DNA from: a virus
Taxonomy: Duplodnaviria > Caudoviricetes
DNA length: 53,852 bases
Strand: one strand, 5' to 3'
IMG/VR virus record: IMGVR_UViG_3300001679_000055
Coordinates: 1-53,852 of that record
In this document: one piece after another, positions 16,909 to 35,064 of the stretch
Layout of the letters: every line of letters starts with the position of its first letter
Numbering within the stretch: position 1 is the first letter of the stretch
Translations under genes and position numbers: made by a program
The notes under the pieces: model-generated
Database searches by the model: none
Seen by the model: the letters and a program-made list of their open reading frames with translations, nothing else
What the model was told of the DNA's origin: nothing

Positions 16909-16931
16909 ACTGTTTTTTTTACTATCTTAAA

Positions 16932-16944
16932 CGTCCTCCGGACG
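16932..16944 (+). promoter_or_regulatory. TCC-triloop hairpin, putative phage promoter
   Basis: CGTCC-TCC-GGACG (template strand C-GGA-G) at the head of the middle region. Confidence 0.5.
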
Positions 16945-17028
16945 CTTTTTTAAATGTATTAGAACTGTTTATTAAATCCAGGATTAATACAGATAACACT
17001 GGGGTTGACTTAAGGAGAACACTAAAAA

Positions 17029-17223
17029 ATGGAAAACAAATTTCATATAGTAAATTGCCAACTAAAAGGATGTCACCATAATAGAAAAAGTATTTGTCGA
17101 TTAGATACTTTACCAATTATGGGATTCGCGGACAGTATGCAATTTTTTAGAGATAGTAAGACGTGTCAAGTAAGACATCAGATAAGTATTCACCGAACAG
17201 AACAATTAATAGGAAAAGATTAA
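17029..17223 (+). CDS. Small Cys-rich protein (DUF1540-like pattern)
   Basis: C-x4-C-x7-C-xL-xx-LPI...C; AAGGAG RBS; paralog of 19306-19533. Confidence 0.6.
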   Translation: MENKFHIVNCQLKGCHHNRKSICRLDTLPIMGFADSMQFFRDSKTCQVRHQISIHRTEQLIGKD

Positions 17224-18623
17224 TGGATTTAAGTAGATTATCAGGGGTTACTTCCCCAAAAATTGTACTAACTAGTAAACAGCAAGCTATCGTAGATAGT
17301 AAAGCTAAAGCTATACTTGTAAACGCTGTGGCAGGTAGTGGTAAGACCGCTACTTTAATGGAATTAGCAAAGAATTATAATAACGGACTATACATAGCCT
17401 TTAACAAAGCTATTGTTACTGATGTAATTGATAAGCTTCCTATTGGTTGGAGTTGTAAAACCTTCAATGCACTAGGATTAGCTATTACAAGGCAACATCT
17501 ATTGAATGCTAAAGTAGATTTTAGTAAATATAGACAAAAAGGTAGTACATACAGTAAATCTTGTGATTTAGCAGTTCACCATATGAGTATGAATGGTGCA
17601 CCTACACAAGATTCTTGGGAAGTTACAGCTAAAAGATTTTCAATACCTAAGTTACATATTAGAGAGGCTTCCAGTATATTAACTGAAGGTAAAGCTGACA
17701 CTAGTGCAATTAGTGGAGAGGATATGCTTCAATACCCAATTGATAATGGTTGGAAAACTGATCATTATGATATTGTTCTAGTAGATGAGTGCCAAGATCT
17801 TAACCCACAGCAAATAGCATTTTTAGCCTGTATTCCTACTGAGAAAATTGTGTTTGTAGGTGATAGAAATCAAGCTATATATGGCTTTAGAGGTAGTGAT
17901 CCTAAAGCATTAACTAAGATCGTTGATGATTACCAGCCTGTTGAATTCGAGATGTCTGAAAGCTTCAGATGTCCTACTGCTGTTGTTGAAAGAGTTAATC
18001 ACGTAGCTCCTAGAATGATGAGTAGTAAAGTAGGTGGGCAAATAGAACGTATTAGTTACGATGATGCCATCTATGATGATGAATGTTTTATTTTGAGCAG
18101 GAGTAATGGCAAACTTATCTCACTAGCTTATAGCTTCATGAAAACTAATAAACATTTCTCTATTGGAACTAACTTTATTAAACAATTAGAACGTGATTTA
18201 AATCCTCATTTAAAAAACGCTACGAATCTGCAACAAGTACATGATAGAGTAATACAAACGTTTAAGCTTGCGCTCAACAAAGCTCAACAAAATAACTGGT
18301 CAACTATAACACTGGATAATAAGTATCAAGCTTTATTAGAATTGATAACCACTGTAGACACTCTACAAGAGGTTAAACTTTTTGCTAATTCATTAAAGAT
18401 GCATACTGATGGTGCTAGTGAACGAAAGCTTATGACTATTCACGCAGCTAAAGGCTTAGAAACTGATCATGTTTACTTTTTAGAACCCGACATGATAGAA
18501 TTTATGAAAAGAAAAGCTACGGATCAGTGGCAACGACAAGAAGAGGATAATCTCTACTATGTTGCATGTACTAGATCCTTATCTAAATTGACATTCATAC
18601 AAAAGAACTCATGGAGAAATTAG
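17223..18623 (+). CDS. UvrD-like superfamily 1A DNA helicase
   Basis: LTSKQQAI, AVAGSGKT, VDECQD, VGDRNQAIYGFRG, SFRCP, TIHAAKGLE, EEDNLYYVACTRS. Start reassigned to the ATG in the TAATG overlap. Confidence 0.9.
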   Translation: MDLSRLSGVTSPKIVLTSKQQAIVDSKAKAILVNAVAGSGKTATLMELAKNYNNGLYIAFNKAIVTDVIDKLPIGWSCKTFNALGLAITRQHLLNAKVDFSKYRQKGSTYSKSCDLAVHHMSMNGAPTQDSWEVTAKRFSIPKLHIREASSILTEGKADTSAISGEDMLQYPIDNGWKTDHYDIVLVDECQDLNPQQIAFLACIPTEKIVFVGDRNQAIYGFRGSDPKALTKIVDDYQPVEFEMSESFRCPTAVVERVNHVAPRMMSSKVGGQIERISYDDAIYDDECFILSRSNGKLISLAYSFMKTNKHFSIGTNFIKQLERDLNPHLKNATNLQQVHDRVIQTFKLALNKAQQNNWSTITLDNKYQALLELITTVDTLQEVKLFANSLKMHTDGASERKLMTIHAAKGLETDHVYFLEPDMIEFMKRKATDQWQRQEEDNLYYVACTRSLSKLTFIQKNSWRN

Positions 18624-18865
18624 CATTTAAAGACATAGTTAAAGACATGCTGGTTTTAGTTAAGATACCTAATGAAGATACTTTATTTTTGTCTAGGGTA
18701 GTAGAAACATCTCTTGGACACCCATCTATACCTAAATTAAGATTAGGTACTGGACACTCTGTTATCTATGGGCAGTCCTGGATTATTTATGCTAATAATA
18801 ATGTTAATCGTACAGAGGTACTATTAACCCAAACGACAATTCAAGAAAACCCAACAATGCTCTAA
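18611..18865 (+). CDS. Hypothetical protein
   Basis: 84-aa ORF overlapping the helicase end. Confidence 0.55.
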   Translation: MEKLAFKDIVKDMLVLVKIPNEDTLFLSRVVETSLGHPSIPKLRLGTGHSVIYGQSWIIYANNNVNRTEVLLTQTTIQENPTML

Positions 18866-18873
18866 GGAGGCTT

Positions 18874-19089
18874 ATGAACGACCTAAATGAAATATTATTA
18901 CTAAAAAGTGTGTGTCAATACATTGATGTAAAAGGAAATATCTACCCTATGGATGACAGTGGTAATATTGATGACATGTCTATTTCAACTATAGGAAATA
19001 TCTCAAATGCACCATTAGATTGGTGGAAAGAATTATCAAATTACGATACAAAATTAGCAGACATTCTTTATGGAGGCCTCATGCAATGA
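18874..19089 (+). CDS. Hypothetical protein, paralog of 19888-20103
   Basis: AAGGAGG RBS; KS..YID..G...GNI.D...DWW..LS.YD.KLADI.YG.L. Confidence 0.75.
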   Translation: MNDLNEILLLKSVCQYIDVKGNIYPMDDSGNIDDMSISTIGNISNAPLDWWKELSNYDTKLADILYGGLMQ

Positions 19090-19199
19090 TATGTAACTGT
19101 GGCTGCATAATGCTAAAACGTGCACATTTTTGGGAATGTCCTACTAAACCTTTCGGAGAACCTGGAGGGTGTGGACGAGTTGAATTTTTCAAGTTGTAA
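19086..19199 (+). CDS. Small zinc-ribbon-like protein (37 aa)
   Basis: Not in track. MICNCGCIMLKRAHFWECPTKPFGEPGGCGRVEFFKL; GGAGG RBS and ATGA overlap. Confidence 0.55.
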   Translation: MICNCGCIMLKRAHFWECPTKPFGEPGGCGRVEFFKL

Positions 19200-19210
19200 A
19201 AATATTTTAA

Positions 19211-19287
19211 GCCCCTTTAGCTCAGTTGGTTAGAGCATCCGACTCATAATCGGCAGGTCGTTAGTTCAAGTCTAACAAGGGGCACCA
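19211..19287 (+). tRNA. tRNA with CAU anticodon, probably tRNA-Ile2 (lysidine) rather than Met
   Basis: Acceptor GCCCCTT/AAGGGGC, D arm GCTC..GAGC, anticodon loop CT-CAT-AA, T loop GTTCAAGTC, encoded ACCA end. C4-G69 and C5-G68 pairs as in Ile2. Confidence 0.9.
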
Positions 19288-19305
19288 AATTAAATAGGAA
19301 ATATA

Positions 19306-19533
19306 ATGGAACATTTTGATATTGCTTCATGTAAAGATGAAGCATGTATAAATTATATTAGTGGTACTTGTGTTTTAAATAAATTACCAATAATACGCTG
19401 GGTATGGGCAGATGAAGCTCTTGGAGGAGCTAGAAGGTTTCAACTACCTACTACTACTGGTAATTGCGCAGCACAACCACAAGTTAATGTATTTCGCACA
19501 CATAAGCTAATTGAAGGTACCACTCATGGGTAG
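19306..19533 (+). CDS. Small Cys-rich protein, paralog of 17029-17223
   Basis: C-x4-C-x7-C-xL-xx-LPI...C...Q....RT..LI. Confidence 0.65.
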   Translation: MEHFDIASCKDEACINYISGTCVLNKLPIIRWVWADEALGGARRFQLPTTTGNCAAQPQVNVFRTHKLIEGTTHG

Positions 19534-19885
19534 ATATTATCAAGGTGATATTGAAGGTAAGTTCTGGTTCGGAGTACAAAACTCAGATGACGGTGAATTC
19601 TTCGGAGCTAAAGAGCTACAAAGTACTCTAATTGACTATGAAATCAATGTCAATGATGTACAGGTAGTTAAAGAAGGAATTATGATGTGTAAGAAACGGT
19701 TAAGACACGCTCTACTAGAGTATGACCCTGATGTGGGCTTCAAGCCATCTTTTTGGAAGCATCTAACTGGAGAAGAACAACGTTATTATTCTGAATGGAT
19801 GGCTAGACTAGAAATGGGTATGAAAATACTCATATTTTTTAACGACAATCCCGACAATGATTGTTACTTTACTGCGGAGACATAG
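19526..19885 (+). CDS. Conserved phage hypothetical protein
   Basis: MGRYYQGDIEGKFWFGVQNSDD N-terminus and C.F..E C-terminus resemble a recurrent phage family. Start moved to ATG 19526. Confidence 0.7.
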   Translation: MGRYYQGDIEGKFWFGVQNSDDGEFFGAKELQSTLIDYEINVNDVQVVKEGIMMCKKRLRHALLEYDPDVGFKPSFWKHLTGEEQRYYSEWMARLEMGMKILIFFNDNPDNDCYFTAET

Positions 19886-19887
19886 AT

Positions 19888-20103
19888 ATGGTGAACAATT
19901 ACGTATACGTAAAAAGCATTAATAAGTACATTGATACAACTACTGGAATTATCTTTAACGTTAACTCTAATGGAAATATAGAAGATGCTGATAAAAGCAA
20001 TAATTTAAGTGAAATGTCACAAGATTGGTGGGATTCGCTATCAACATATGACTTGAAACTGGCAGACATTATTTATGGTGAGTTAATTGAAAAGGAGAAA
20101 TAA
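19888..20103 (+). CDS. Hypothetical protein, paralog of 18874-19089
   Basis: GGAG RBS before ATG 19888; shares the DWW..LS.YD.KLADI.YG motif. Confidence 0.75.
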   Translation: MVNNYVYVKSINKYIDTTTGIIFNVNSNGNIEDADKSNNLSEMSQDWWDSLSTYDLKLADIIYGELIEKEK

Positions 20104-20247
20104 ATGACAAGCTGGATAATTACTTATTATGATGCAATTCAAGATCAAAAAATGTGGGTTGAAATCTTTGCTAACACAGTTGACCAGGCTTCTGATCAAT
20201 TTCAAAAAATGTATGGCACTTCAATGCCAATCGTTAACATTCGATAA
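20104..20247 (+). CDS. Small hypothetical protein (47 aa)
   Basis: Not in track. AAGGAG RBS, MTSWIITYYDAIQDQKMWVEIFANTVDQASDQFQKMYGTSMPIVNIR; fills the gap exactly. Confidence 0.6.
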   Translation: MTSWIITYYDAIQDQKMWVEIFANTVDQASDQFQKMYGTSMPIVNIR

Positions 20248-20255
20248 GGAGAAAT

Positions 20256-20633
20256 ATGGGAAAAGTTAAAGCACAACTATTAGACGAACAAGAACATGAT
20301 CAATTTATGAGAGATCAGGAACCTGACTTCGATGATTATGCACTAGCTACTAAGGATAAAGCTTTAGATATAAATGCTCTCCTTAAATTGATAGATGCTT
20401 TTGCAGCTAAAAAGGATATTAATGTCTTACTGTACAAAAAGCTGATCAAAATAATAGAAGAGTCAGTTAATAAGGACGATCAACGTGAGATGGAGGCTGT
20501 ATTCGAGGAAGGTGTGTATTGCCAGACTTGTGAGCACTGTGAACTTACACGTGACGCATATGGCACTGGTGACAGTCCTACATTACGTGAGTGTACTGCA
20601 GATGATCCATCTGAATGTCCAGGACTACTATGA
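20256..20633 (+). CDS. Hypothetical protein with C-terminal Cys cluster
   Basis: AAGGAG RBS; CQTCEHC...DAYGTGDSPT..EC......CP. Confidence 0.7.
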   Translation: MGKVKAQLLDEQEHDQFMRDQEPDFDDYALATKDKALDINALLKLIDAFAAKKDINVLLYKKLIKIIEESVNKDDQREMEAVFEEGVYCQTCEHCELTRDAYGTGDSPTLRECTADDPSECPGLL

Positions 20634-20815
20634 GTAATACAATAGCAGTACATCAAGCATACACAGATATGCAGAAAGTAACTACTAAACACCCCAAACT
20701 AAAAGAAAGAATCGAAGATGCATTCGATTTAATGCGTCAAGAAATTGATGATGGAGAATGGGAAGATTTAGAGGTAGATAGATTTTATAACTATATGGTG
20801 GAACTAACAACATGA
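20630..20815 (+). CDS. Hypothetical protein
   Basis: ATGA-coupled small acidic ORF. Confidence 0.6.
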   Translation: MSNTIAVHQAYTDMQKVTTKHPKLKERIEDAFDLMRQEIDDGEWEDLEVDRFYNYMVELTT

Positions 20816-21297
20816 TTAAATTAACAAATAAGAACATCAAACTATTAGGGGCATCACTTTTAATCTTAACTTATGTATCACCAGTTAAAGCCAAATCCTT
20901 ATATCAAGATAGGGGGTTAATCTTTAATGGGTCTGGAGAGGGTTGTTATTTCACTCAAGAAGATGAGATAGGTTCTTCGTATTTCTCTAACTTTACGTCA
21001 AATGTAGGTACTGTAACCTTTAAAAATCCTGAGTGTATGTATAAAAATACTCAGATAGGTCAGATGGTTAACATCAACCAAATCAATAGAAAAATCGCAC
21101 AATGGTATACCAATACTCATTTTAATTTTTACACTTCCGCTTTATATACAACTAGTGCTTTACAAAAAACCGGGGTATGTATGCAATCTAAGTTGAGCAA
21201 AAATTCAGCTATAACAATAAGTTACATAACAAACACGAGTGGTTCTATATATAAATTCAAACATGGACCAGCTTTAGGCGGATGCACTTCTAAATAA
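20812..21297 (+). CDS. Putative secreted or periplasmic protein
   Basis: Basic N-terminus, hydrophobic core and V-K-A cleavage-like site; four Cys. Confidence 0.6.
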   Translation: MIKLTNKNIKLLGASLLILTYVSPVKAKSLYQDRGLIFNGSGEGCYFTQEDEIGSSYFSNFTSNVGTVTFKNPECMYKNTQIGQMVNINQINRKIAQWYTNTHFNFYTSALYTTSALQKTGVCMQSKLSKNSAITISYITNTSGSIYKFKHGPALGGCTSK

Positions 21298-21304
21298 CTT
21301 AAAA

Positions 21305-21319
21305 GTGGTCTCCGACCAC
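21305..21319 (+). promoter_or_regulatory. TCC-triloop hairpin, putative phage promoter
   Basis: GTGGTC-TCC-GACCAC in an intergenic gap. Confidence 0.5.
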
Positions 21320-21354
21320 CTATATGAATGATTACATAATCCAAGGAGATTAAT

Positions 21355-21762
21355 ATGCCAACAGGCAAAAGACTAACGCTGAAACAGCGTGCAGAAATAA
21401 TGGAAGTTTACAAAACAGGAAACTTAACTCAATCAGAAATTGCTAGCTTAGTAGACCTAGGAATCTCTACAGTTAGTAGAGTTATTGCACAAGAGCAAGG
21501 ATTTAAACCCATGCCTGAACCTAGGAAACTAAAAACTAAGTTTAAAACCACAGTATCTATAGCTGCAACAAATGCAGATCATGCTAAAGTAGCTGCGTAT
21601 GCTAAGCTACATGATTTGGCTATGCATAATGCTCTACATATCATGTTGAGTGATAGTGCCCATACCAACCTAATAAATACTATTCAACGTGAAGTTGAAA
21701 TTATGGTATCAGCAGCTAAGACTGAAGTTGCGATCATTAAAAAGAAATGGTGGCATCTATGA
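21355..21762 (+). CDS. HTH DNA-binding protein
   Basis: RLTLKQRAEI...LTQSEIASLVDLGISTVSRVI; AAGGAG RBS. Confidence 0.75.
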   Translation: MPTGKRLTLKQRAEIMEVYKTGNLTQSEIASLVDLGISTVSRVIAQEQGFKPMPEPRKLKTKFKTTVSIAATNADHAKVAAYAKLHDLAMHNALHIMLSDSAHTNLINTIQREVEIMVSAAKTEVAIIKKKWWHL

Positions 21763-22361
21763 AACTAAGTATTGTAAAAAAGAGTGAAATCACACATAAC
21801 ATTTTAGATATCTACGAAAAGCCAATGGATCTACTGGATAAAGAACGTCAGCATGTAGTTCTTGAAAATTACCTATTGTGGATTGCCCAATATCAAACAG
21901 ACATTGACAATTTGCCTATTGAATTTTTTAATACGTCTTCTGTTTTAAAAACATTAATAGAGGTTGACTCTTCAGGCCTTAAACACCTTAATACTGTTTG
22001 GCACTATTCTCATGATGTTAAAGTTCCAGTAATGTCCCAAGACTCAGGATATTATGCTGAACCTGAAGCTCAAGAATTACATCCAACATTACAAAGCAAG
22101 GTTGAAGACATCCTGCAACGTTTCGATAAGCTAATTTCCGAAAAGAGTAATTTACGTACATTCGTAGACGAAAGTCTAGATCAGGTAACTACAACTAAGC
22201 AGTTGCGTGACTTATGGGCTAATTATGGGGCGTTACTTAAACATATCCCACCTGAACCTTCTAGAGTTAAAAAATCAAAACAAACAGTTTTAAACCTTAA
22301 AACTAAATTGGATATTCAGGCGATAAATCAAAGATTAACAGAACATTTATTAGAAGGATAA
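21759..22361 (+). CDS. Hypothetical protein, possibly Nmad5-like
   Basis: Helical, with LDQVTTTKQLRDLW...LKHIP near the C-terminus; family call tentative. Confidence 0.45.
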   Translation: MKLSIVKKSEITHNILDIYEKPMDLLDKERQHVVLENYLLWIAQYQTDIDNLPIEFFNTSSVLKTLIEVDSSGLKHLNTVWHYSHDVKVPVMSQDSGYYAEPEAQELHPTLQSKVEDILQRFDKLISEKSNLRTFVDESLDQVTTTKQLRDLWANYGALLKHIPPEPSRVKKSKQTVLNLKTKLDIQAINQRLTEHLLEG

Positions 22362-22362
22362 T

Positions 22363-22542
22363 ATGCCTAAACCTACATATGATGATAATCGAATAGAGCG
22401 TGAATACGCCATGGAAGTGCACGATTACTTAGCTATACAGTTACAACGAGCTAAAGTGCGCCACTACAATGTTAAAGAAAAATTCTTTCAAGACCTTGTT
22501 GACAAACAAGACATGGTTATTGAGTACATGGAGAAAACATGA
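22363..22542 (+). CDS. Small hypothetical protein (59 aa)
   Basis: Not in track. MPKPTYDDNRIEREYAMEVHD...; AAGGA RBS; ATGA overlap with the next gene. Confidence 0.55.
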   Translation: MPKPTYDDNRIEREYAMEVHDYLAIQLQRAKVRHYNVKEKFFQDLVDKQDMVIEYMEKT

Positions 22543-22706
22543 ATGTGTTAGATTCATTGACCTGCGATAGGTATGCACTAGTTAACCGCCTATCTCTAGC
22601 TATAGATGTAAAGGATAGAGAGGTGACAAAAGAAATTCTTGATAATCTAATCAAAATAAACAAAGTAATTAAAGAAATTAACCCTCTAGAGGAGTATGAC
22701 ACATGA
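22539..22706 (+). CDS. Small hypothetical protein (55 aa)
   Basis: Not in track. GGAG RBS, MNVLDSLTCDRYALVNRL...; ATGA overlap with the AAA gene. Confidence 0.55.
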   Translation: MNVLDSLTCDRYALVNRLSLAIDVKDREVTKEILDNLIKINKVIKEINPLEEYDT

Positions 22707-23734
22707 GTATTGAAATTTCAGCAACAGAGATGATAGAAGCTTTGAATAGCGTATTAACTTCTGGGCTAACCCCTATGTTAGTGGGGTCACCTGGTATAGG
22801 TAAATCAGATATCGTTAGATCGGTAGCTAAAATGCACAATCTTAAACTGATTGATATGCGCTTAGCCCAGTCAGATCCTACTGACCTAAATGGTTTCCCT
22901 ACGTTACAGCAGGATGGTACTCGCATGGACTATGCGCCACCAATGACATTTCCTTTACAGGATATGGACGAAGTTCCTGATGGATACGATGGTTGGTTAC
23001 TATTCTTAGATGAGATTAATGCAGCACCACCGGCTATTCAAGCAGCAGCTTACAAGCTAGTATTAGATAGACAAATCGGTGCTCATGACATACATAAACG
23101 AGTAGCTATTGTATGTGCTGGTAATAAGGCTACAGATAAGGCTATTGTTAATAGGTTATCTACGGCAATGCAGTCTCGCATGATTCATCTTAATCTAATG
23201 GTAGACACAGCTAGCTGGTTAGACTGGGGTAATTCTAACGGTATTGACCACAGAGTCATATCATTTATTAAATATAGGCCTGAGTTGTTGCATAAGTTTA
23301 ACCCCAATCATTCAGATGACACATTTGCATCACCTAGAACCTGGGAATTCTTATCTAAAATCATCAAAGGCAAGGAAACGTTCAATAGAACTGATCATGC
23401 AGTATTAGTTGGTACAGTGGGTGAGGGTGCAGCAACAGAGTTCAGAGCATTCTGTGCAGTATACAAAGATTTGCCTGATATTGAGACTATGATTAAACAT
23501 CCTGAAATCATTAAAATACCTAAGGAACCAGGCCATCAATACGCTATTACAACTTTAATCAGCCATAATGCATCATCTGATACGGTCAAACCATTAATGA
23601 TAATCATTAAAAAACTGCCAGTAGAATTTCAGGTAGTTGTGTTAAAAGACATTTATGCTCTTAAACCTGAACTCAAAACTCACCCAGTAATCCAAGATTG
23701 GATTCAAAAAAACGCAGACAAACTATTTGGATAA
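22703..23734 (+). CDS. AAA+ ATPase (N4 gp24-like)
   Basis: GSPGIGKS, LLFLDEIN, AGN, arginine finger AMQSR, SPRTWE. Confidence 0.9.
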   Translation: MSIEISATEMIEALNSVLTSGLTPMLVGSPGIGKSDIVRSVAKMHNLKLIDMRLAQSDPTDLNGFPTLQQDGTRMDYAPPMTFPLQDMDEVPDGYDGWLLFLDEINAAPPAIQAAAYKLVLDRQIGAHDIHKRVAIVCAGNKATDKAIVNRLSTAMQSRMIHLNLMVDTASWLDWGNSNGIDHRVISFIKYRPELLHKFNPNHSDDTFASPRTWEFLSKIIKGKETFNRTDHAVLVGTVGEGAATEFRAFCAVYKDLPDIETMIKHPEIIKIPKEPGHQYAITTLISHNASSDTVKPLMIIIKKLPVEFQVVVLKDIYALKPELKTHPVIQDWIQKNADKLFG

Positions 23735-23738
23735 TACT

Positions 23739-24845
23739 ATGGAAAACAAGAAAGTAGAGGATTACCTTAGGCATGCTAAGATTGAACTTATGACTAAATC
23801 AGTATTTTTATCTACTGTCTGCCTAAGTTTAAAACATAAATTCTCAGACTCATTGCCTACTGCAGGTACTGATGGTATTTCTATTATTTACAATCCTAAG
23901 TTCTTTGAAGAACTAACAGCTCCTGAAAGAGCCGGGCTACTGGCACATGAAGTGTGGCATGTAGCATTCAATCACTTTGCTAGAGTAAATGGGCGTGATA
24001 AGCGTACATGGAACCTGGCAGGAGACTACGTAATTAACTACATGCTAACTGAAACAGGTTACTCACTGCCTAAGGGTGGTTTATATGATGAACGTTTTAA
24101 AGATATGTCAACAGAGGAAGTCTACGACATTATTAAAGACGAGGACGAAAATGACCAAGGTAGAGGTGATTTCTTAGAAGACTTACTTGATTCACCAGAT
24201 GGAATTAAAGAGGCTGATATATTTGATAAAGTTACAGACATTATCATTCAAGCCCAAATACAATCTAAAGCAGCAGGTAAAGAACATGGTGAAATACCTG
24301 GAGAAATAGCTAGAGCTATTGATGAGTTAATCAACCCTAAGCTACCATGGAATCAGTTACTTACCCGATTCTTAACTAATATGATTAAGGATGATTACAC
24401 TTGGACTAAGCCCAATAGACGCTTTTTCCCACAACATTACTTACCTAGCCAACACTCTCCGACTATCGGAGATATAGTTGTAGCTATAGACACCAGTGGT
24501 AGTGTTACAGATGAAGACCTACTAGAGATGTTGTCTGAAATACAAGACATCAGAAACGTGTACAAACCAGACTCACTCAAGATAATTGATTGTGACTGGG
24601 AAATACATAATGTTTTTGATGTAGATAAACATGATAACATTCTAGACTTAAAGTTTACGGGAGGTGGAGGAACTAGTTTCGACCCTGTTATAAAGTATTG
24701 TGATGCTCACCAGCCACAACTACTAATCTACTTTACTGACCTATACGCTGAAGAACTTAACGAGGAAACATCGTACCCTATTATGTGGATATGCAATTCA
24801 GATCATGAACCTGCACCATATGGGGAGACGGTTTATATTAAATAA
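23739..24845 (+). CDS. Metallopeptidase-vWA domain protein (N4 gp25-like)
   Basis: TAGTDG, HEVWH, WNLAGDYVIN, MIDAS DTSGS, GGGGTSF, YFTD. Confidence 0.9.
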   Translation: MENKKVEDYLRHAKIELMTKSVFLSTVCLSLKHKFSDSLPTAGTDGISIIYNPKFFEELTAPERAGLLAHEVWHVAFNHFARVNGRDKRTWNLAGDYVINYMLTETGYSLPKGGLYDERFKDMSTEEVYDIIKDEDENDQGRGDFLEDLLDSPDGIKEADIFDKVTDIIIQAQIQSKAAGKEHGEIPGEIARAIDELINPKLPWNQLLTRFLTNMIKDDYTWTKPNRRFFPQHYLPSQHSPTIGDIVVAIDTSGSVTDEDLLEMLSEIQDIRNVYKPDSLKIIDCDWEIHNVFDVDKHDNILDLKFTGGGGTSFDPVIKYCDAHQPQLLIYFTDLYAEELNEETSYPIMWICNSDHEPAPYGETVYIK

Positions 24846-24846
24846 T

Positions 24847-25068
24847 ATGGCAGCAATACAATTGGACTTCTTAGTTGAAGTCATCTCTAAAGCTTTATGC
24901 TTTGAATATTATGTAGCTTTACAAGGTATAGATGACCCTGAAGATATTGATATTGAAGAAGCCTTAAAGTTTTACGAAGAACGCACTGAAGAATACGTAT
25001 CTAAAGCAACTTCTCTACTAATAATGGTAGAAAGTTCAGACGACTTACTAAACGAAACATTCCATTAA
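24847..25068 (+). CDS. Hypothetical protein
   Basis: Acidic ORF; start moved to ATG 24847. Confidence 0.55.
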   Translation: MAAIQLDFLVEVISKALCFEYYVALQGIDDPEDIDIEEALKFYEERTEEYVSKATSLLIMVESSDDLLNETFH

Positions 25069-25077
25069 GGAGCACCT

Positions 25078-27579: not shown

Positions 27580-27581
27580 AC

Positions 27582-27788
27582 ATGAACATTGAATACAAAA
27601 AATTACACACATTATCTTTACACGCTTCAATAACTGTAAGTGAACGTTTAACCGTTACACGCGTACCTGGAGGCCTTATTTACTATTTTAAAGATCTTGA
27701 TTTTACAACTGAAGGATTTAATGTAGCAAATAGTGTATTCGTCCCTTTTACTGATTTTGAAAGTAATGGTAAAGGTGTATTCGGATAA
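27582..27788 (+). CDS. Hypothetical protein
   Basis: TRVPGGLIY...SVFVP; GGAGG RBS. Confidence 0.65.
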   Translation: MNIEYKKLHTLSLHASITVSERLTVTRVPGGLIYYFKDLDFTTEGFNVANSVFVPFTDFESNGKGVFG

Positions 27789-28771
27789 TGGCTTTTACAT
27801 ACACAAACAACAGTAATGTCAGTCTTCCATTAGCCGTATGGTTAATGCATGATGACTATGACTACGATAGTAGACCTAATGTAATTAGCGCTACATCATT
27901 ATTAAAACCCACTAGAGCATTAGTCCTCAAACGTCAGAACGCAGGGTTAGATAAGTCAGTAGATATCACAGATTTAGTTAGCGCTCGTATGGGATCAGCT
28001 ATTCATGCTATTGCTGAAGAAGCATGGTTAAATAAAGATAATATTAAGAAAGCCTTATCAGCTATGGGAACGTCGAACTTATTTGATAAGTTTGTTATTA
28101 ACTCTGACACACCAGTAAGTGGAGACCAAATTCCTGTATACATAGAACAACGCCATGAAACTGCCGTAGACGATTACATCATCTCAGGTAAATATGACCT
28201 TGTACTAGATGGCACTATCTCAGATTATAAGAGTACGTCTGTATGGACATATATCTATGATTCTAATGCTCTTAAGTACACCCAACAGGGCAGTATATAC
28301 AAGTGGTTAGCTCCAGATAGAATTACCGATAACAAGATCAGTATTCAATTTATTTTTACAGATTGGTCAGGTGCTAATGCTAAAAGAGACTCTAAATACC
28401 CTCAATCACGCGTTCTAACTAAAGATTACCCATTATGGTCTGTTGAACAAACGGATAAGTTTATTAAAGATAAGCTTAAGTTAATTTCTGAGTTGAAATC
28501 GCTGCCACAGGATGCACTTCCTGAATGCACTTCCGAAGAGTTATGGGAATCTCAAACTAAGTATAAATATTTTAAGAATCCTACCAAAATGACGAGAGCA
28601 ACTAAAAACTTTGACACTATGGACGAAGCAAGCGCTAGATTATCAGCTGATGGAAATATTGGTGTAATTCAAACTGTGCGTGGAGAAGTTAAAGCATGCC
28701 GCTACTGTGAAGTAGTAGACATTTGTACACAAGCAAAAAATTTACAAGCACAAGGGAGACTAGTATTATGA
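27788..28771 (+). CDS. PD-(D/E)xK nuclease (N4 gp42-like)
   Basis: ISATSLLKP, RMGSAIH, EQR, ISGKYD, DYKSTS, Q.SIY.W, C-terminal CRYC....C. Confidence 0.85.
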   Translation: MAFTYTNNSNVSLPLAVWLMHDDYDYDSRPNVISATSLLKPTRALVLKRQNAGLDKSVDITDLVSARMGSAIHAIAEEAWLNKDNIKKALSAMGTSNLFDKFVINSDTPVSGDQIPVYIEQRHETAVDDYIISGKYDLVLDGTISDYKSTSVWTYIYDSNALKYTQQGSIYKWLAPDRITDNKISIQFIFTDWSGANAKRDSKYPQSRVLTKDYPLWSVEQTDKFIKDKLKLISELKSLPQDALPECTSEELWESQTKYKYFKNPTKMTRATKNFDTMDEASARLSADGNIGVIQTVRGEVKACRYCEVVDICTQAKNLQAQGRLVL

Positions 28772-29145
28772 ATTTAGACGCTAAATTACTAAAACATCTA
28801 GCTATATTTTGTGAAAATGTTGCATTAGATATTGATGCACATCTAAATACTCCTAAAAGCACAGTTATCATACCTTCAGATAAACTAGGTACCACTATAG
28901 CCACACTAAAAAGTATGACTAAAGAAAAACCTAAAATTAAAACTAAACGTAAGAGACGAGATACAACTCGACTCACAGTCAAGCAATGTGCTCTAGTTAA
29001 ACAAATGCGTAAAGCTAATCCTCATTTATTTGATGATCAATTCGGTGAAAGGATGAATCAAGAATTCGGTCTTAGTAAATCAACAACTACCTGGCGTAAT
29101 GTTGTATCAAGAAATACTGAATATTTTAAATCACTAGACTACTAA
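28768..29145 (+). CDS. Hypothetical basic protein, possibly DNA-binding
   Basis: GGGAG RBS and ATGA overlap; C-terminal RLTVKQ...MNQEFGLSKSTTTWRNV is HTH-like. Confidence 0.6.
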   Translation: MNLDAKLLKHLAIFCENVALDIDAHLNTPKSTVIIPSDKLGTTIATLKSMTKEKPKIKTKRKRRDTTRLTVKQCALVKQMRKANPHLFDDQFGERMNQEFGLSKSTTTWRNVVSRNTEYFKSLDY

Positions 29146-29148
29146 ATT

Positions 29149-31299
29149 ATGGACGATCCTAAATATAATAAATTATCTGAAGAGATAGTCGATATTCTTG
29201 TCGCTAAAACTCAGTCGCAGAATAGACACTTCTTCCGAATTTTAGTAGCATACTATCTTTCAAAAGTAGCATCTATGATGCGTTGTAACATTGAAACTAA
29301 AGATAGAGGTGTCATCCCAGTTAATACCTATGTATTAAACTTAATGCCCTCTGGAGCTGGTAAGGGTTTTTCAACTAACATTATTGAAGAAGATATTATT
29401 GAGGGTTTCAGATTAAACTTTTTGACACATATCTTGCCTGAAGAAAGTGCTAATGAGTTATCTATATTAGCTAATTTAAGAGCTGCTAGAGATCCTGAAT
29501 TGTCACAAGAAGAGGCTATGACAGATGTGCAAAAAGAATATGACGCACTCGGCAATCTAGCATTCAGTTTTGATAGTGGAACATCCCCAGCTGTAAAGCA
29601 GATGAGACAAAAATTGCTTATGTCTAATTGTGGATCTATGAATCTAGAATTGGATGAGGTAGGGTCTAACCTAACTAACAATGCTGAAATGCTAAATACC
29701 TTTTTAGAACTTTATGATGTAGGTAAAGTTAAACAGAAATTAACAAAGAATACTGCTGATAATAAGCGTGGGGAAGAGCTTACAGGTAGAACTCCTACCA
29801 ACATGATGTTATTTGGTACTCCTACTAAATTACTTGATGGTAGTCGAGTAGAAGACGAATTCAAACAAATGCTGGAAACGGGCTATGCTCGTAGAATGTT
29901 ATTTGGCTATGACACCACAGTCAATAATGTACACCAGCAAACAGCTGAAGAGTTGTATGATGCCTTAACTAATACCAATGTATCTAAAGATACTTTACGT
30001 ATTGAAAGTCTCATAACTAATCTTGCAGACAGGGCTAAGTTTAATACTGTGCTTACTATGAGTAAGGTAGATACCATACACTTACTGCAATATAAAATAA
30101 CCTGCGAAAGTTTATCCAGAGATCTTAAACCTCATGAAGAAACCCAGAAGGCTGAACTCGCACACAGATACTATAAAGCTTTAAAGTTAGCAGGAGCTTA
30201 TGCTTTTGCTGAAGGATCCTCTGTAATTGCTAAGGAACATCTAGACAGTGCTATACAACTAGTCGAAGACTCAGGTGAGCATTTCAAACGCATTATGTGT
30301 AAAGAAGGGCCTTATGCTAGATTAGCTAGATACATTGCTGATGTGGGGCGTGAGATTACTCAAGTTGATCTTGTAGAGGAACTGCCATTTTATAAAGGGC
30401 AGGAATCCCAAAAGAAAGAAATGTTGAAACTGGCAATTGCGTATGGGTATAAGAATAATATTATTATTCGTAAAACCTACGTGGATGACATTGAGTTCTT
30501 ATCAGGAGAAGCTCTACAAGAGACTGACCTAGATAACGTACATGTTAGTTATAGTACTGATATCACTACAGGTTACGTTGAGGGTGTTGGTGCGTTTAGC
30601 GCATTAAATAACCTAGTATGTACTACAGGACACCATTACACAGCTCACAACTTCTTAGATGGTTACAGATCATCAGAGAAAGCTATTCCAGGCTTTGACC
30701 TACTAATCTTAGACATTGATAGCGGTACAAGCGTTAATACAGCTATGGAGCTGTTAAGCGACTTCACAGCGATGTACGCAACTACAAAACGACACACTGA
30801 AGATAAGCACCGATTTAGAGTTATATTGCCTATGTCTCACTACATTAAGTTAAGTCCTAAGGACTATTCAAAATTTATGGAGAATGTGTTTAATTGGTTA
30901 CCTTTCGAAACTGACACAGCTACTAAAGATATTGCACGTAAGTGGATGTCCCATAATGGAGAATGTCACTTCAACACAGGTGAATTAATTGATGCTACGT
31001 TATTTATACCTCAGACTAAAAAAGCTATGGAGCAGGAAAAGATCCTGTTAGATGCTAAAGGTATGGATAATATGGAAAGGTGGTTTGCTTCACGTATTGA
31101 AGTAGGCAACAGAGCCACTATGGTTATCCGTTATGGTTTTATGTTGGTAGATAATGAACTACCTCTAGACTTTATTATGTCTAAGCTTCATGGCTTTAAT
31201 GATAAGTTACCTGATCCATTGACCAGGGAAGAACTAGACACAAAGATACAAATCTCAATATCGAGAAAGATGATTCAAAAGGAGAGTATGCATGAATAA
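29149..31299 (+). CDS. DNA primase with N-terminal P-loop domain (N4 gp43-like)
   Basis: PSGAGKG, ELDEVGSNL, LFGTP, GYARR; primase LILDID, TKRH, RFRVILP; GNR. Confidence 0.88.
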   Translation: MDDPKYNKLSEEIVDILVAKTQSQNRHFFRILVAYYLSKVASMMRCNIETKDRGVIPVNTYVLNLMPSGAGKGFSTNIIEEDIIEGFRLNFLTHILPEESANELSILANLRAARDPELSQEEAMTDVQKEYDALGNLAFSFDSGTSPAVKQMRQKLLMSNCGSMNLELDEVGSNLTNNAEMLNTFLELYDVGKVKQKLTKNTADNKRGEELTGRTPTNMMLFGTPTKLLDGSRVEDEFKQMLETGYARRMLFGYDTTVNNVHQQTAEELYDALTNTNVSKDTLRIESLITNLADRAKFNTVLTMSKVDTIHLLQYKITCESLSRDLKPHEETQKAELAHRYYKALKLAGAYAFAEGSSVIAKEHLDSAIQLVEDSGEHFKRIMCKEGPYARLARYIADVGREITQVDLVEELPFYKGQESQKKEMLKLAIAYGYKNNIIIRKTYVDDIEFLSGEALQETDLDNVHVSYSTDITTGYVEGVGAFSALNNLVCTTGHHYTAHNFLDGYRSSEKAIPGFDLLILDIDSGTSVNTAMELLSDFTAMYATTKRHTEDKHRFRVILPMSHYIKLSPKDYSKFMENVFNWLPFETDTATKDIARKWMSHNGECHFNTGELIDATLFIPQTKKAMEQEKILLDAKGMDNMERWFASRIEVGNRATMVIRYGFMLVDNELPLDFIMSKLHGFNDKLPDPLTREELDTKIQISISRKMIQKESMHE

Positions 31300-32011
31300 C
31301 AACCTAGTATTGTTATGCGGTAAATCCGCAACAGGAAAATCAGCCAGTTTGGTTGATATCAAAAACCCAAAAGGGGTAATGTACTTAAATTGTGAAAACA
31401 ATAAGAAGTTACCTTTCAACTCTAAATTTCAAGAATATACAATTACGGATCCTACAGATGTGCCTGATGCTATTGACTCAGTACAAGATAATGGTGACAT
31501 TCACACTATCGTCATCGATAGTTTGACATACCTAATGGATATGTTTGAAAGTACCAAAGTGCTAACTTCATCTAATACGATGAAAGCCTGGGGTAGCTAT
31601 GCCCAGTTCTTAAAGAATCTGATGGCACAAAATGTAGCCAACTCTAACAAGAACATCATTTTCATTGCACATACATCAGATGTATTTAATGAATCTGAAA
31701 TGGTAAATGAAACTATGGTTAAAGTTAAAGGTTCTTTAATGAACACAGGTATTGAGAGCTTTTTTAGTACGGTGATCGCATGTAAGAAATTACCTTTAAA
31801 AAGTATTGAAGATTCTAAATCTAAAATGCTCAAGGTTAACGATGAAGAGGAGTTACTTGGATTTAAATACGTGTATCAGACACGTCTAACAAAAGACACT
31901 GTAAATGAGCGTATTAGAAGTCCTATGCGTATGTGGGGTATTGAAGAAACCTATGTTGATAATAACTTACAGCATGTGCTAGATAAATTACACACTTACT
32001 ACGATGCCTAG
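31292..32011 (+). CDS. Sak4-like AAA ATPase (N4 gp44-like)
   Basis: GKSATGKS, YLNCE, IVIDS, IAH, VKGSL, RIRSP. Confidence 0.85.
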   Translation: MNNNLVLLCGKSATGKSASLVDIKNPKGVMYLNCENNKKLPFNSKFQEYTITDPTDVPDAIDSVQDNGDIHTIVIDSLTYLMDMFESTKVLTSSNTMKAWGSYAQFLKNLMAQNVANSNKNIIFIAHTSDVFNESEMVNETMVKVKGSLMNTGIESFFSTVIACKKLPLKSIEDSKSKMLKVNDEEELLGFKYVYQTRLTKDTVNERIRSPMRMWGIEETYVDNNLQHVLDKLHTYYDA

Positions 32012-32204
32012 AGCATTAAACAAAAAACAGAAGCAAATACTTAATAGGTATAACTACTGTACTCACGAAAGTGATCTCCCTAAAGACGTTTTAGGTCAAA
32101 TAATTGACTTAAACAACTATGATGAGGTGTACATGGATGTAACAAGGTATTTATATGATACTTACGTACAACTGAATGGTACACCTCTCAAAAAACACTC
32201 GTGA
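32004..32204 (+). CDS. Hypothetical protein
   Basis: 66-aa ORF overlapping the upstream stop. Confidence 0.55.
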   Translation: MPRALNKKQKQILNRYNYCTHESDLPKDVLGQIIDLNNYDEVYMDVTRYLYDTYVQLNGTPLKKHS

Positions 32205-32210
32205 AGGGGT

Positions 32211-32317
32211 GTAGGTGTTTATGTGTAAGCACATGGTTTAGCCTGTAATCTCTGGGAGGGTATTACGAAGTAAACTTAAGAGGCATGTCATAGGTATGGA
32301 CATTAACTTACCTACCA
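32211..32317 (+). ncRNA. Candidate structured (cloverleaf-like) ncRNA
   Basis: Closing stem GTAGGT/ACCTAC, three internal hairpins, 3' ACCA; intergenic. Confidence 0.4.
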
Positions 32318-32332
32318 AATTACGGAGAAAAA

Positions 32333-32494
32333 ATGAACGATACTAAACTAGTAACAATCAAAACTTTAGTTGAGATGTTGGATAAAAACACACCTGAACT
32401 AAATTGCACACTAATAGCTGTGGTAGATAAAGAAGGACGTCATATAGAGTCTCCAGACAGTATCGAAGCAGTAATACAATTTGAGAATAAATAA
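32333..32494 (+). CDS. Small hypothetical protein (53 aa)
   Basis: Not in track. GGAG RBS, MNDTKLVTIKTLVEMLDK...; TAATG overlap with the next gene. Confidence 0.6.
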   Translation: MNDTKLVTIKTLVEMLDKNTPELNCTLIAVVDKEGRHIESPDSIEAVIQFENK

Positions 32495-32790
32495 TGTTAA
32501 AACATATGTTAGAAAATGCCGCACAGACGTGGCGGAAAAAACAACTAATTAGAGCTGAGGTAGCTTCAGCTATAGGTGAATATAACCTTTCTGAAACAGC
32601 TGAAGACATTTACATATTTGCAGCAGCTAGTAAAGCAAATATTTCAAATATACGTCAGCACAGTTATTTTGCTAATAAGTCCCACTCAACCATTAAACGA
32701 GCAGTTATTGAGCTAAAAACTCATAACTTATTGAAATCCGTAGAAGATACAATAGACAGGCGTGTTCAGTGGTTAATCCCTACTGATTAG
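32494..32790 (+). CDS. MarR-like winged-HTH protein
   Basis: LSETAEDI...SHSTIKRAVIELKTHNLL....DTIDRRVQWL wing. Confidence 0.7.
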   Translation: MLKHMLENAAQTWRKKQLIRAEVASAIGEYNLSETAEDIYIFAAASKANISNIRQHSYFANKSHSTIKRAVIELKTHNLLKSVEDTIDRRVQWLIPTD

Positions 32791-32794
32791 TTTT

Positions 32795-33205
32795 ATGGGA
32801 AACAGGAAAATAAGAGACTACGTACTTTCAGATGGATCTATAACTAATGCTCCTAAGGTCGCAGCCAAAGCTAATTTACACATAACCACAGCAAGGTGTC
32901 GACTAGCCAGAACAGACGATCCTAAATTGATTTACGCTGCTAAAAGCGAGAACAATAAAAAAGGTAAGTTTAAATCCTACATTCTAGATGATGGTAGTGT
33001 TTGGACCATTCCTGAGATCGTAAAAAAAGCAGGCATAACTAAGCAATGTGCAGCGGCTAGATTACATGTGTCTAAGGACGCAGCAAAGGTATTACGCCCA
33101 AAAGTATTTGTGGAAGGTGAATCTTCTAAAATAGCCAGTAGGGCCATCACACGCCGTATGTACTTTGACCCAGATGGTTTTTGGAAGATATTTAACAGAA
33201 TTTAG
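32795..33205 (+). CDS. Tandem-repeat HTH-like protein
   Basis: Two repeats, YVLSDGSITNAPKVAAKANLHITTARCRL and YILDDGSVWTIPEIVKKAGITKQCAAARL. Confidence 0.65.
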   Translation: MGNRKIRDYVLSDGSITNAPKVAAKANLHITTARCRLARTDDPKLIYAAKSENNKKGKFKSYILDDGSVWTIPEIVKKAGITKQCAAARLHVSKDAAKVLRPKVFVEGESSKIASRAITRRMYFDPDGFWKIFNRI

Positions 33206-33339
33206 TAAGAATGAGGGCAACGGGGGAAGTCCCACTGATGAAGCAGCCTTAAACTAATTATCCAAATACTACGGTTTGGGTGTTAATGAAAGATAACTAC
33301 TGTGAAGATCCCAACTAATTATTTATAACAAAGGTAAAA

Positions 33340-33663
33340 ATGAAAAATAAGATTAAAGAGTTTTTTACGAGTGAACCTGACTATGACCTAAGATGGTTAT
33401 TTATTACTGTTGTGTTACTGGTACTAATTACCTTAAGCACTAAATCAAAAGCTTATGAACCATTCCCCGCTGATGTTATAACCATGGATGTCACTAAATC
33501 ATATGGTGGCGGTGGTACTTTTTTATGTCCTACTGTACGAGATTGTTTTGTATACACACGCTACGCAGAGCAACGCGGTGCTAATCAGTACTGTGAGTCA
33601 GTTGTTATTAAACGTAATGGTGTAGTCGTTTGGTCAAAATATTTTTACAAAAACAAATACTAA
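33340..33663 (+). CDS. Membrane-anchored or secreted protein
   Basis: Hydrophobic WLFITVVLLVLITL then SKA; three Cys. Confidence 0.65.
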   Translation: MKNKIKEFFTSEPDYDLRWLFITVVLLVLITLSTKSKAYEPFPADVITMDVTKSYGGGGTFLCPTVRDCFVYTRYAEQRGANQYCESVVIKRNGVVVWSKYFYKNKY

Positions 33664-33800
33664 TGAGCAATCTACTAGAACTTCCTGAGGATTATTGGGA
33701 TAGACAAGCTAGACAAAATAACTTATTAGAAAAGCTGCGTAAGCTTAAGCGGGAAGAAAATGAACAAAGGCAAATTCTGTTGGCCAGACGGTACAGGTAA
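33663..33800 (+). CDS. Small hypothetical protein (45 aa)
   Basis: Not in track. TAATG overlap; MSNLLELPEDYWDRQARQNNLLEKLRKLKREENEQRQILLARRYR. Confidence 0.4.
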   Translation: MSNLLELPEDYWDRQARQNNLLEKLRKLKREENEQRQILLARRYR

Positions 33801-33969
33801 ACAATATTGTATATCTGCAGAAGATATGTTTGATGAGGATGTAGGAATTATTCTTGCAGACGTTTGGGAAGAAGAGTATCCTATTCAAGATAGCTTAAAA
33901 ATTCTTGAGGAGATTACCAATAATGAAAGTAGTATTTCATGTAACACCTGTACCAGCAGCAAGACCTAG
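33760..33969 (+). CDS. Hypothetical protein
   Basis: 69-aa ORF overlapping both neighbours. Confidence 0.45.
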   Translation: MNKGKFCWPDGTGKQYCISAEDMFDEDVGIILADVWEEEYPIQDSLKILEEITNNESSISCNTCTSSKT

Positions 33970-34315
33970 AGTGACTAGATGGTCTACCTTCTACCCAAAG
34001 AAATATACAGAATTCAAAGCAGCTATGGAAATAGCTAAAAGTGATATACATTGTGTACCTTTAGAGAACAACGTATACGCTAAATTAGACTTCTTTGTTA
34101 AGATCCCTATGTCGTGGTCTAAAAAGAAAAAAGAGTCGAAACTGGGTAAATATTGTGATAATAATGCAGATATTGATAATTACTGTAAAGCCATAATGGA
34201 TTCCTTAAACGGGAAATATTATTTAGATGACAGGCAGGTAGTAATGTTACGTGCCCGTATGTTTTGGTCTAACACCCCAAGAATCCAATGTGAGTTTTTA
34301 CCAATACAAGAGTAG
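33923..34315 (+). CDS. rusA: RusA-family Holliday junction resolvase
   Basis: PVPAARPR, P.SWSKKKK, DIDNYCKAIMDSLNG..Y.DDRQV; GAGGAG RBS before ATG 33923. Confidence 0.88.
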   Translation: MKVVFHVTPVPAARPRVTRWSTFYPKKYTEFKAAMEIAKSDIHCVPLENNVYAKLDFFVKIPMSWSKKKKESKLGKYCDNNADIDNYCKAIMDSLNGKYYLDDRQVVMLRARMFWSNTPRIQCEFLPIQE

Positions 34316-34318
34316 ATT

Positions 34319-34510
34319 ATGAAAAACTTATCTAGAGAAGAATTATGCGAAGCACTAGCTGAAGACTATGCAGATAGAGCAGCAAAAGGTGGAAACGATT
34401 ACACTAAGTCATACGTACATTACTTAGAAAGGTGTTTATTACGCAAAACTACAGATTTACTACAACAATATAAAGTACAAGGATTACATAATTTAGGCTT
34501 TATATTTTAA
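34319..34510 (+). CDS. Hypothetical protein
   Basis: 63-aa ORF. Confidence 0.6.
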   Translation: MKNLSREELCEALAEDYADRAAKGGNDYTKSYVHYLERCLLRKTTDLLQQYKVQGLHNLGFIF

Positions 34511-34512
34511 AT

Positions 34513-34952
34513 TCGGTATGTAGATGGTGAAACGTCTTTGGGAGGGTTTACTCTTGAGGAATAGAGCCCACCTACATGCTGAGAATGTTAACACATTAGT
34601 TGAAGATGAATACGCCATCTCTAGCCCGAAGACTAAACTTCCTAGGGCCAGGTTCATAAGACGGTAAAGGTTGCTACCGTGCGTATAAGTAACCACTTAA
34701 GCCAAGGTTCCGAGTGGATTACTTTCATTTACACTCTCCCACCTTAATGAAGGTTCGTATGTTTCCTAAGATGCTGTAAAACATACCCCCCTTTCTTTTA
34801 ACTCTCAGGAGCATAAAGCAAAGTTGACGGCCTGGCTCACTCCGATATGGAGCCTCTAATTTAAGAACACATAAGTACGTCGGTCCTGTTGGCCAACTCC
34901 TTGTTAAGAGCTAGTTTGAGAGTACTAGTGTGTACAAACTCTCACCAAACTA
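34513..34952 (+). ncRNA. Candidate structured ncRNA or cluster of ncRNAs
   Basis: About 440 nt without a convincing ORF, densely packed with stems containing G-U pairs. Confidence 0.4.
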
Positions 34953-34957
34953 TAACT

Positions 34958-34976
34958 AAGGGTTCTCCGAACCCTT
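34958..34976 (+). promoter_or_regulatory. TCC-triloop hairpin, putative promoter for ssb
   Basis: AAGGGTTC-TCC-GAACCCTT, 8-bp stem. Confidence 0.55.
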
Positions 34977-35064
34977 TGTAAGAAATTAATTTAAAACGCT
35001 ATAGAGTATGTTGTCAACTTTATGGTTTTCTATTATCGACAACAATTACAAAAAGGAAAATATT

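Follow-up and report, generated by a model that had tools for sequence, protein, structure and literature searches.

C-TCC-G hairpins at the heads of the replication operons of an uncultured marine N4-like phage, conserved in related contigs and probably acting as promoters

The window analyzed in this study is a whole virus record of IMG/VR (IMGVR_UViG_3300001679_000055; 53,852 bases, completeness rating of 73%), and its subject is a set of three short hairpins with a C-TCC-G core (TCC hairpins) that stand in front of its replication genes. The window is from an N4-like phage of an uncultured marine lineage. The runs containing it were DNA runs from vent and marine metagenomes, the deposited phage genomes included no close relative of it, and a megablast search of positions 13000-36300 against phage records returned no match. 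The genes on the + strand form a single block (13546-36201), which is flanked on both sides by late genes on the - strand. The block begins with small open reading frames (ORFs) that belong to no known family, followed by the gene for the RNA polymerase RNAPII. After RNAPII, the order is helicase, tRNA-Met, helix-turn-helix (HTH) protein, Nmad5-like protein, ATPase, DUF2201 protein, DNA polymerase A, exonuclease, primase, Sak4-like protein, and SSB.

The three TCC hairpins were found in the gaps at 16834-17028, 21298-21354, and 34511-35064, in a rough gene model in which intergenic DNA makes up 2786 of the 53852 bases (Table 1). Hairpin 1 heads an operon of a 64-amino acid (aa) ORF and the DNA helicase, hairpin 2 heads the operon running from the HTH protein through the Nmad5-like, ATPase, DUF2201, DNA polymerase A, exonuclease, and primase genes to Sak4, and hairpin 3 heads the SSB operon. 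An earlier note on this DNA had described these elements as sharing C-TCC-G on unrelated stems and a common orientation, with AT-rich DNA after each, and both the positions and the sequences were confirmed. The stems have 5, 6, and 8 base pairs (bp) in hairpins 1, 2, and 3, the loop has 3 nucleotides (nt), and C-TCC-G lies on the + strand, which is the coding strand of the downstream genes. The sequences that follow are CTTTTTT, CTATATG, and TGTAAG, respectively. The AATG that had been noticed at an equal offset in hairpins 1 and 2 lies at +15 to +18 from the central loop base (the reference for all signed positions below) and, judging from the aligned copies, is part of a wider family consensus.

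Table 1. Features of the window and their positions, counted from its first base.
Feature	Position	Strand	Details
TCC hairpin 1, CGTCC TCC GGACG	16932..16944	+	loop center 16938; T-rich spacer 16945-16951; predicted start A 16952 (+14)
TCC hairpin 2, GTGGTC TCC GACCAC	21305..21319	+	loop center 21312; predicted start G 21326
TCC hairpin 3, AAGGGTTC TCC GAACCCTT	34958..34976	+	loop center 34967; predicted start A 34981
Fourth C-TCC-G hairpin, CAGAC TCC GTCTG	43717..43729	+	within the vRNAP gene, in antisense orientation
Intrinsic terminator of the early/RNAPII operon	16876..16920	+	stem-loop 16876-16892, then long T runs; terminator scan
Early hairpin GAGAGC TGAA GCTCTC, then TTGGG	13306..13321	+	other family, outside the TCC family
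Early hairpin AAGCGA AGTC TCGCTT, then AACAGGCA	13490..13505	+	40 nt before the first + strand gene
Early hairpin ACGCGA AGTC TCGCGT, then TTCAGGCA	13983..13998	+	second AGTC copy, covarying stem
RNAPII, single-chain T7-like RNA polymerase, 593 aa	15052..16833	+	Pfam PF00940, E 4.8e-18
SSB gene operon	35065-36201	+	phrog_743 SSB, E 1.6e-57
Virion RNA polymerase (vRNAP), 3803 aa	36203..47614	-	last 999 aa: 23-24% identical over 96% of their length to annotated vRNAPs of N4-like phages (tblastn)
Tail fiber protein, late gene	4120-6678	-	
Terminase large subunit, late gene	10000-11586	-	
Virion structural protein, late gene	52023-52973	-	

The window was scanned on both strands for perfect stems of at least five pairs around the C-TCC-G core, and four hairpins were found on the + strand and none on the - strand. 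In 500 dinucleotide-preserving shuffles scanned on both strands, the mean count was 0.17 and the maximum was 2, and none of the 500 reached 3. Three of the four hairpins are intergenic. A scan against shuffled controls was a check that the earlier note had proposed. The hairpin family at the heads of the three middle operons is thus real, with replication genes downstream and a frequency far above the shuffles. In single-stranded DNA (ssDNA) folding, each hairpin was better than its shuffles on both strands (z of -2.2 to -3.9). The fourth hairpin, which was absent from the earlier list, has A instead of G at -5 and T instead of a purine at +14 and was judged to be a chance match.

A protein search with RNAPII recovered 34 related viral contigs with 43-82% identity, and the relatives that keep TCC hairpins have RNAPII identities of 57-82%. 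In all 23 loci whose RNAPII is at least 57% identical, a hairpin lies 56-98 nt past the RNAPII gene, with C-TCC-G in 22 loci and T-TCC-A in one (L007). Many of these 23 loci are near-duplicates, and the post-RNAPII site has eight distinct stems with the window counted (CGTCC, GCGTCC, CCGTCC, CCGTTC, CCGTTT, GTGGAC, AGTGGAC, and GTGACC). In the closest relative, L002, the counterpart of the 5-bp stem of hairpin 1 has 6 bp. Hairpins with differing stems were also found before the ATPase/DNA polymerase block (the window, L002, G001, G002, G004, L006, L007, L009, and L033). Before the SSB gene, a hairpin was present in seven of seven records examined (the window, L036, G001-G004, and L040), with five different stems: AAGGGTTC, GGGTTC, CGGTGC, GGGTAC, and GAGGGTAC. 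A protein-pattern search with SSB gave only one locus, and the other SSB sites were obtained by direct search of five records. Full-length scans of the records of four relatives (48-67 kb) revealed co-directional TCC hairpins at just two or three places each, namely, past RNAPII and ahead of both the Nmad5-like/ATPase/DUF2201 block and the SSB gene.

A loop-centered, gapless alignment of 30 distinct copies (A1), comprising 19 distinct stems, showed which positions of the element are constant. The TCC loop and a G at -5 paired with a C at +5 were present in all 30 copies, and the closing pair was C:G in 25 and T:A in five. Downstream of the loop, T was found at +8 in 29 copies and at +13 in 20, a purine at +14 in every copy (A in 21, G in 9), and A at +15 and +16 in 26 and 21 copies, respectively. 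The purine remains at +14 with stems of 5, 6, 7, or 8 pairs, indicating that this distance is set from the loop and not from the foot of the stem. Among 12 other TCC hairpins, which are intragenic or non-syntenic, a purine occurs at +14 in six. At least six pairs are formed in 29 of the 30 copies (pair 8-22 is unpaired in one), and double-sided changes were observed in five of the six stem pairs. The element can therefore be defined more sharply than in print, as G-N-N-C TCC G-N-N-C with T at +8 and a purine-A-A triplet that begins at +14, counted from the loop, and this definition points to specific mutants that could reveal the polymerase reading it.

Between the RNAPII stop codon and hairpin 1, the early/RNAPII operon has an intrinsic terminator. 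A stem-loop followed by T7-9 was recognized by eye at the same site in 13 of 13 sequences inspected, 10-25 nt before the TCC hairpin. The early operon thus has a terminator of its own, past which the TCC hairpin is the first conserved element. Since a separate terminator lies upstream of hairpin 1, the hairpin is not the terminator, and the operon downstream needs a promoter of its own.

Additionally, a second and different family of hairpins with 4-nt loops, which had also been reported in the earlier note, is present in the left-end early region of the window. The TGAA hairpin is kept in L003 with a compensatory change (GAAAGC TGAA GCTTTC TTGG), and both A-AGTC-T hairpins have a common CAGGCA a few bases downstream. 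At the left ends of relatives, the loops are TAC (G003, G005, L005, and L006) or TTC (G004), including three C-TAC-G hairpins in G003 and G005 and two C-TTC-G hairpins in G004. The early-region hairpins of the window (13042-14100) are candidate promoters of vRNAP.

The TCC hairpins resemble known promoters of phage N4. The first 12 kb of the N4 genome contain the hairpins GTTGC TTC GCAAC (90), AAGAAGC TCC GCTTCTT (557-573), and AAGCTGC TCC GCAGCTT (4546-4562), which precede gp1, gp2, and gp15; after each of them come T-rich DNA and then GG. They fit the vRNAP promoters P1-P3 as described in the excerpted text of a review (PMC4496689). The earlier note was right that a template C-GGA-G is the loop of an N4 vRNAP promoter, as P2 and P3 carry the C-TCC-G core, and all three hairpins of the window have the same template C-GGA-G. 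Like P1-P3, the elements of the window have a template hairpin whose 3-nt loop reads G-R-A (T-Y-C on the coding strand) and is closed by a C:G pair, followed by a coding spacer rich in T and by a start purine, which in the window is a predicted one, and they share the stem length of 5-7 bp except for hairpin 3, with its 8 bp. However, the start in N4 lies 11 nt from the loop center, whereas the predicted start purine lies at 14 here; position +11 is T in hairpin 1 and in 18 of the 30 copies. The template G at -8 of the N4 promoters, which corresponds to a coding C beside the closing G, is not kept in the window family, in which the coding base at +3 is A in 12, C in three, G in eight, and T in seven copies (G, A, and A in the window). 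Furthermore, the N4 promoters precede the early genes, including RNAPII, at the left end, whereas in the window all three hairpins come after the RNAPII gene and the terminator of its operon.

The middle promoters of N4, which are used by its RNAPII, are linear, AT-rich, and extend from -7 to +2, and the excerpted part of the review describes no hairpin for them (PMC4496689); their start is T according to an excerpt of another study (PMC9163698). They serve the same gene class as the hairpins of the window, through a polymerase of the same family that acts on a single-stranded template with an SSB cofactor, as stated in the review excerpt (PMC4496689). The view that RNAP II promoters are not hairpins therefore holds for N4 itself, but not in general, as Pseudomonas phage LUZ7 has hairpin middle promoters (PMC9163698, excerpt).

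In LUZ7, sequencing of transcription start sites (TSSs) in 2022 revealed hairpin middle promoters beside hairpin early promoters (PMC9163698, cited here and below from excerpts). Nine early TSSs were mapped, mostly behind hairpins with stems of at least 4 bp, 3-nt loops, and a G start 13-14 nt from the hairpin center. Four middle TSSs follow GC-rich hairpins situated approximately 15 bp upstream of a G start, with stems of at least 6 bp and loops of 3-4 nt; these TSSs were seen at 10 min and not at 5 min, and the authors credited them to RNAPII (PMC9163698). We found exactly four intergenic, co-directional (C/T)-TCC-(G/A) hairpins in the LUZ7 genome, with stems of 6-7 bp, at 8238, 9521, 35252, and 39354, all of which have G at +14. 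The first of them lies 9 nt past the RNAPII stop codon, and the Sak4 and SSB genes follow the last. A fifth TCC hairpin, at 66578, runs antisense to the late gene that contains it, with C at +14, and the early region of LUZ7 carries C-TTC-G and C-TAC-G hairpins, including a pair 32 nt apart before gp14. The four hairpins presumably correspond to the published middle promoters PM1-4.

The window shares with LUZ7 a GC-rich hairpin with a 3-nt loop, a purine approximately 14-15 nt from the loop that in the window is the predicted start, a location before middle (replication) genes, and a separate class of early hairpins with distinct loops. The positions before the helicase operon, the ATPase/DNA polymerase/primase operon, and the SSB operon agree with this likeness, and so does the layout, with one TCC hairpin immediately past the RNAPII gene and another ahead of the Sak4/SSB genes. 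The differences concern the polymerase, which is two proteins in LUZ7 versus one chain in the window, the start purine, which is predicted to be A in 21 of the 30 copies of the window family versus G in LUZ7, and the -5/+5 pair, which is invariably G:C in the window family versus C:G in two of the four LUZ7 hairpins. The proposal that the two hairpin families represent an undescribed system was thus not borne out, since such a program is already in print for LUZ7 (PMC9163698), a phage whose TCC hairpins are built in the same way. Although real and well conserved, the finding is not a new kind of system; it extends the LUZ7-type program with two hairpin classes to a distant, uncultured marine N4-like lineage with a fused, single-chain RNAPII.

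Taken together, the enrichment, the synteny, the invariant positions, the stem changes on both sides, the separate terminator, and the precedents of N4 and LUZ7 make it likely that the hairpins are promoters of some phage polymerase. More specifically, we propose, with a probability of roughly 0.55, that they are N4/LUZ7-type promoters of the three replication (middle) operons and are read by RNAPII. In this proposal, negative supercoiling or a single-strand-binding cofactor would cause the inverted repeat to extrude, and the template strand would fold into a mini-hairpin in which a C:G pair closes a 5'-GGA-3' loop. A T7-like RNA polymerase of the phage would then recognize this loop together with its closing pair and with the invariant G:C pair that lies three steps down in the stem. 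Transcription would start past the T-rich (template A-rich) spacer, at the purine whose distance downstream from the central loop base is exactly 14 nt. The reader would most likely be the early-expressed, single-chain RNAPII. Early genes would accordingly depend on the left-end hairpin family and the injected vRNAP and middle genes on the TCC family, as proposed for LUZ7.

Against cultured N4-like phages, the RNAPII query matched in two to three pieces, which are annotated as two subunit genes, whereas RNAPII in 34 of 34 related loci matched as one stretch, indicating that this marine lineage has a fused RNAPII. Several observations bear on which polymerase reads the hairpins. In comparisons of the window with G001-G004, the identities were 58-68% for RNAPII and 50-67% for DNA polymerase, compared with 23-26% for the polymerase domain of vRNAP; likewise, this domain was 22-26% identical in relatives whose RNAPII was 46-68% identical. 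The constant TCC promoter would thus pair with the conserved enzyme and the varying early loops with the fast-changing one, which, as far as sequence comparison goes, favors RNAPII as the reader. In addition, the TCC family occurs solely downstream of the RNAPII gene in the clade of the window.

The strongest alternative, which we regard as rather unlikely, is that the hairpins are promoters read by the injected vRNAP, like P1-P3 of N4. In that case, vRNAP would have two promoter classes, and the middle timing would result from stepwise entry of the DNA or from the need for an early cofactor. This alternative draws on some of the points that weigh against our proposal. The vRNAP of N4 is the only polymerase for which recognition of such hairpins has been demonstrated biochemically, and P2 and P3, which it reads, have the identical C-TCC-G core as well as a T-rich spacer and a purine start (PMC4496689, excerpt). 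Moreover, phages of a sister clade (RNAPII 43-48% identical) have TCC hairpins that share the G(-5)/C(+5) core, G-N-N-C TCC G-N-N-C, in the left-end early region and none in the middle region, and the left-end TCC hairpin of this clade is probably read by vRNAP. For LUZ7, the assignment of the middle promoters to RNAPII is based on timing and not on enzyme assays in the excerpted text (PMC9163698), and six numbers around the LUZ7 starts predicted at about 8259, 9543, 35273, and 39375 are absent from the main text of that paper, so that our matching of its hairpins to PM1-4 is indirect. The public runs containing the window include no RNA run. The pairing statistics of our alignment (99.4% of cells pair) are partly circular because the copies were gathered through a search for perfect stems, and the independent evidence is the presence of a hairpin at positions defined by gene order. 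Lastly, hairpin 1 is followed by a T6 run and was also picked up by the terminator scan.

On the other hand, the clade of the window has other loops at the left end, and its TCC hairpins appear only past the RNAPII gene and the terminator. The TCC motif is also invariant although the vRNAP polymerase domain has diverged to 23-26% identity, and in the TSS data of LUZ7 such hairpins belong to the middle class, detected at 10 min and not at 5 min (PMC9163698, excerpt). The earlier note had left two options, namely, that RNAPII uses hairpin promoters or that vRNAP also drives the middle genes. The promoter role common to both fits the comparative data, and RNAPII is the favored reader.

It is very unlikely that the hairpins work in RNA as terminators, processing sites, or operators for an RNA-binding protein in read-through transcripts, although the elements are intergenic, lie in the transcribed orientation, and, as short GC-rich stem-loops, resemble intrinsic terminators. 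Hairpin 1 is followed by CTTTTTT and is in the list of the terminator scan, but a GC-rich stem followed by a T run is found in this hairpin alone, with no T run after hairpins 2 and 3, and hairpin 1 already has a proper terminator upstream. A terminator also requires neither a fixed loop nor a fixed G:C pair, and no purine at a set distance from the loop independent of stem length, whereas the loop and downstream positions are fixed here. A search of the window against Rfam gave a tRNA as the sole match, with no family at the hairpins or at 34511-34957. The comparative data thus fit a promoter and argue against a terminator, the outcome by which the earlier note would have been overturned. Least probable of all is a role of the hairpins as DNA sites in some other process, such as replication priming or the binding of a repressor (e.g., the HTH protein encoded at 21355), since these conserved, sequence-specific elements adjoin replication genes but are strictly co-oriented with the genes downstream, stand at operon heads, one of them right after a terminator, and have a conserved pyrimidine-purine step at +13/+14 followed by AA, as well as a likeness to the mapped promoters of N4 and LUZ7.

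Beyond this lineage, TCC hairpins were found in intergenic gaps downstream of RNAPII in four of eight cultured genera sampled (LUZ7, a Litunavirus, pYD6-A, and Salmonella TR2), and these four phages have TAC or TTC loops in their early regions. No intergenic TCC hairpin downstream of RNAPII was found in the stretches read of N4, phiAxp-3, DFL12phi1, and Vibrio D445. Together with the marine clade, the four genera hint at a family-wide code, and we tentatively raise the possibility that the TCC hairpin is an old promoter code of the small RNAPII in Schitoviridae, whether split or fused, from which the linear AT-rich middle promoters of N4 would be a derived exception. If so, a minimal T7-like polymerase would read an extruded GGA mini-hairpin, a mode whose biochemical demonstration is limited to the giant vRNAP.

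In 11 loci of the sister clade, with RNAPII 43-53% identical, the terminator of RNAPII is kept and hairpin 1 is replaced by a conserved, linear AT-rich stretch. This stretch, cATACTTAAgATTAtAaT (L024-L035), lies just past the RNAPII terminator and precedes the same small Cys-rich ORF. The stretch may serve as a linear promoter; as a candidate for a repeated promoter it was rejected, since with up to three mismatches allowed the motif occurred once per record in four of five records. The sole GC-rich intergenic hairpins in a complete genome of this clade lie in the left-end non-coding region, and one of them is a C-TCC-G hairpin with the same G/C pair. Within the helicase gene of two relatives, a T-TCC-A hairpin is kept on the opposite strand with A at +14 (CTCTT/AAGAG at 51193-51205 in G001 and TTCTT/AAGAA at 45922-45934 in G002), and it may be an antisense promoter or due to chance.

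The vRNAP of the window has no cysteine in its 3803 residues, as noted for the vRNAP of LUZ7 (PMC3715699), and has two HExxH motifs, at aa 1409 and 2736. A phmmer search with its polymerase domain (aa 1470-2620) against PDB sequences gave no match even at an E value of 10. The gene adjoining RNAPII upstream (14560-14964) encodes a conserved early protein of 134 aa from no known family, with orthologues in eight relatives (alignment A2), no PHROG match, and no BLASTP likeness to LUZ7 gp14 or N4 gp2. Its AlphaFold model, built from nine sequences, had a mean pLDDT of 37.7 and was too poor for use. By its position, this protein is a candidate ssDNA-binding cofactor of RNAPII.

The tRNA-Met gene (CAT; 19211-19287) lies within the first middle operon, and pYD6-A likewise has a tRNA-Met, directly after one of its TCC hairpins. 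Upstream of hairpin 3, positions 34511-34957 comprise approximately 450 bases of non-coding DNA. Compared with L036, the closest relative in this region, the DNA upstream of hairpin 3 is 71% identical over 550 nt, and a 47-nt piece of it (34899-34945) is 87% identical to a stretch in G004.

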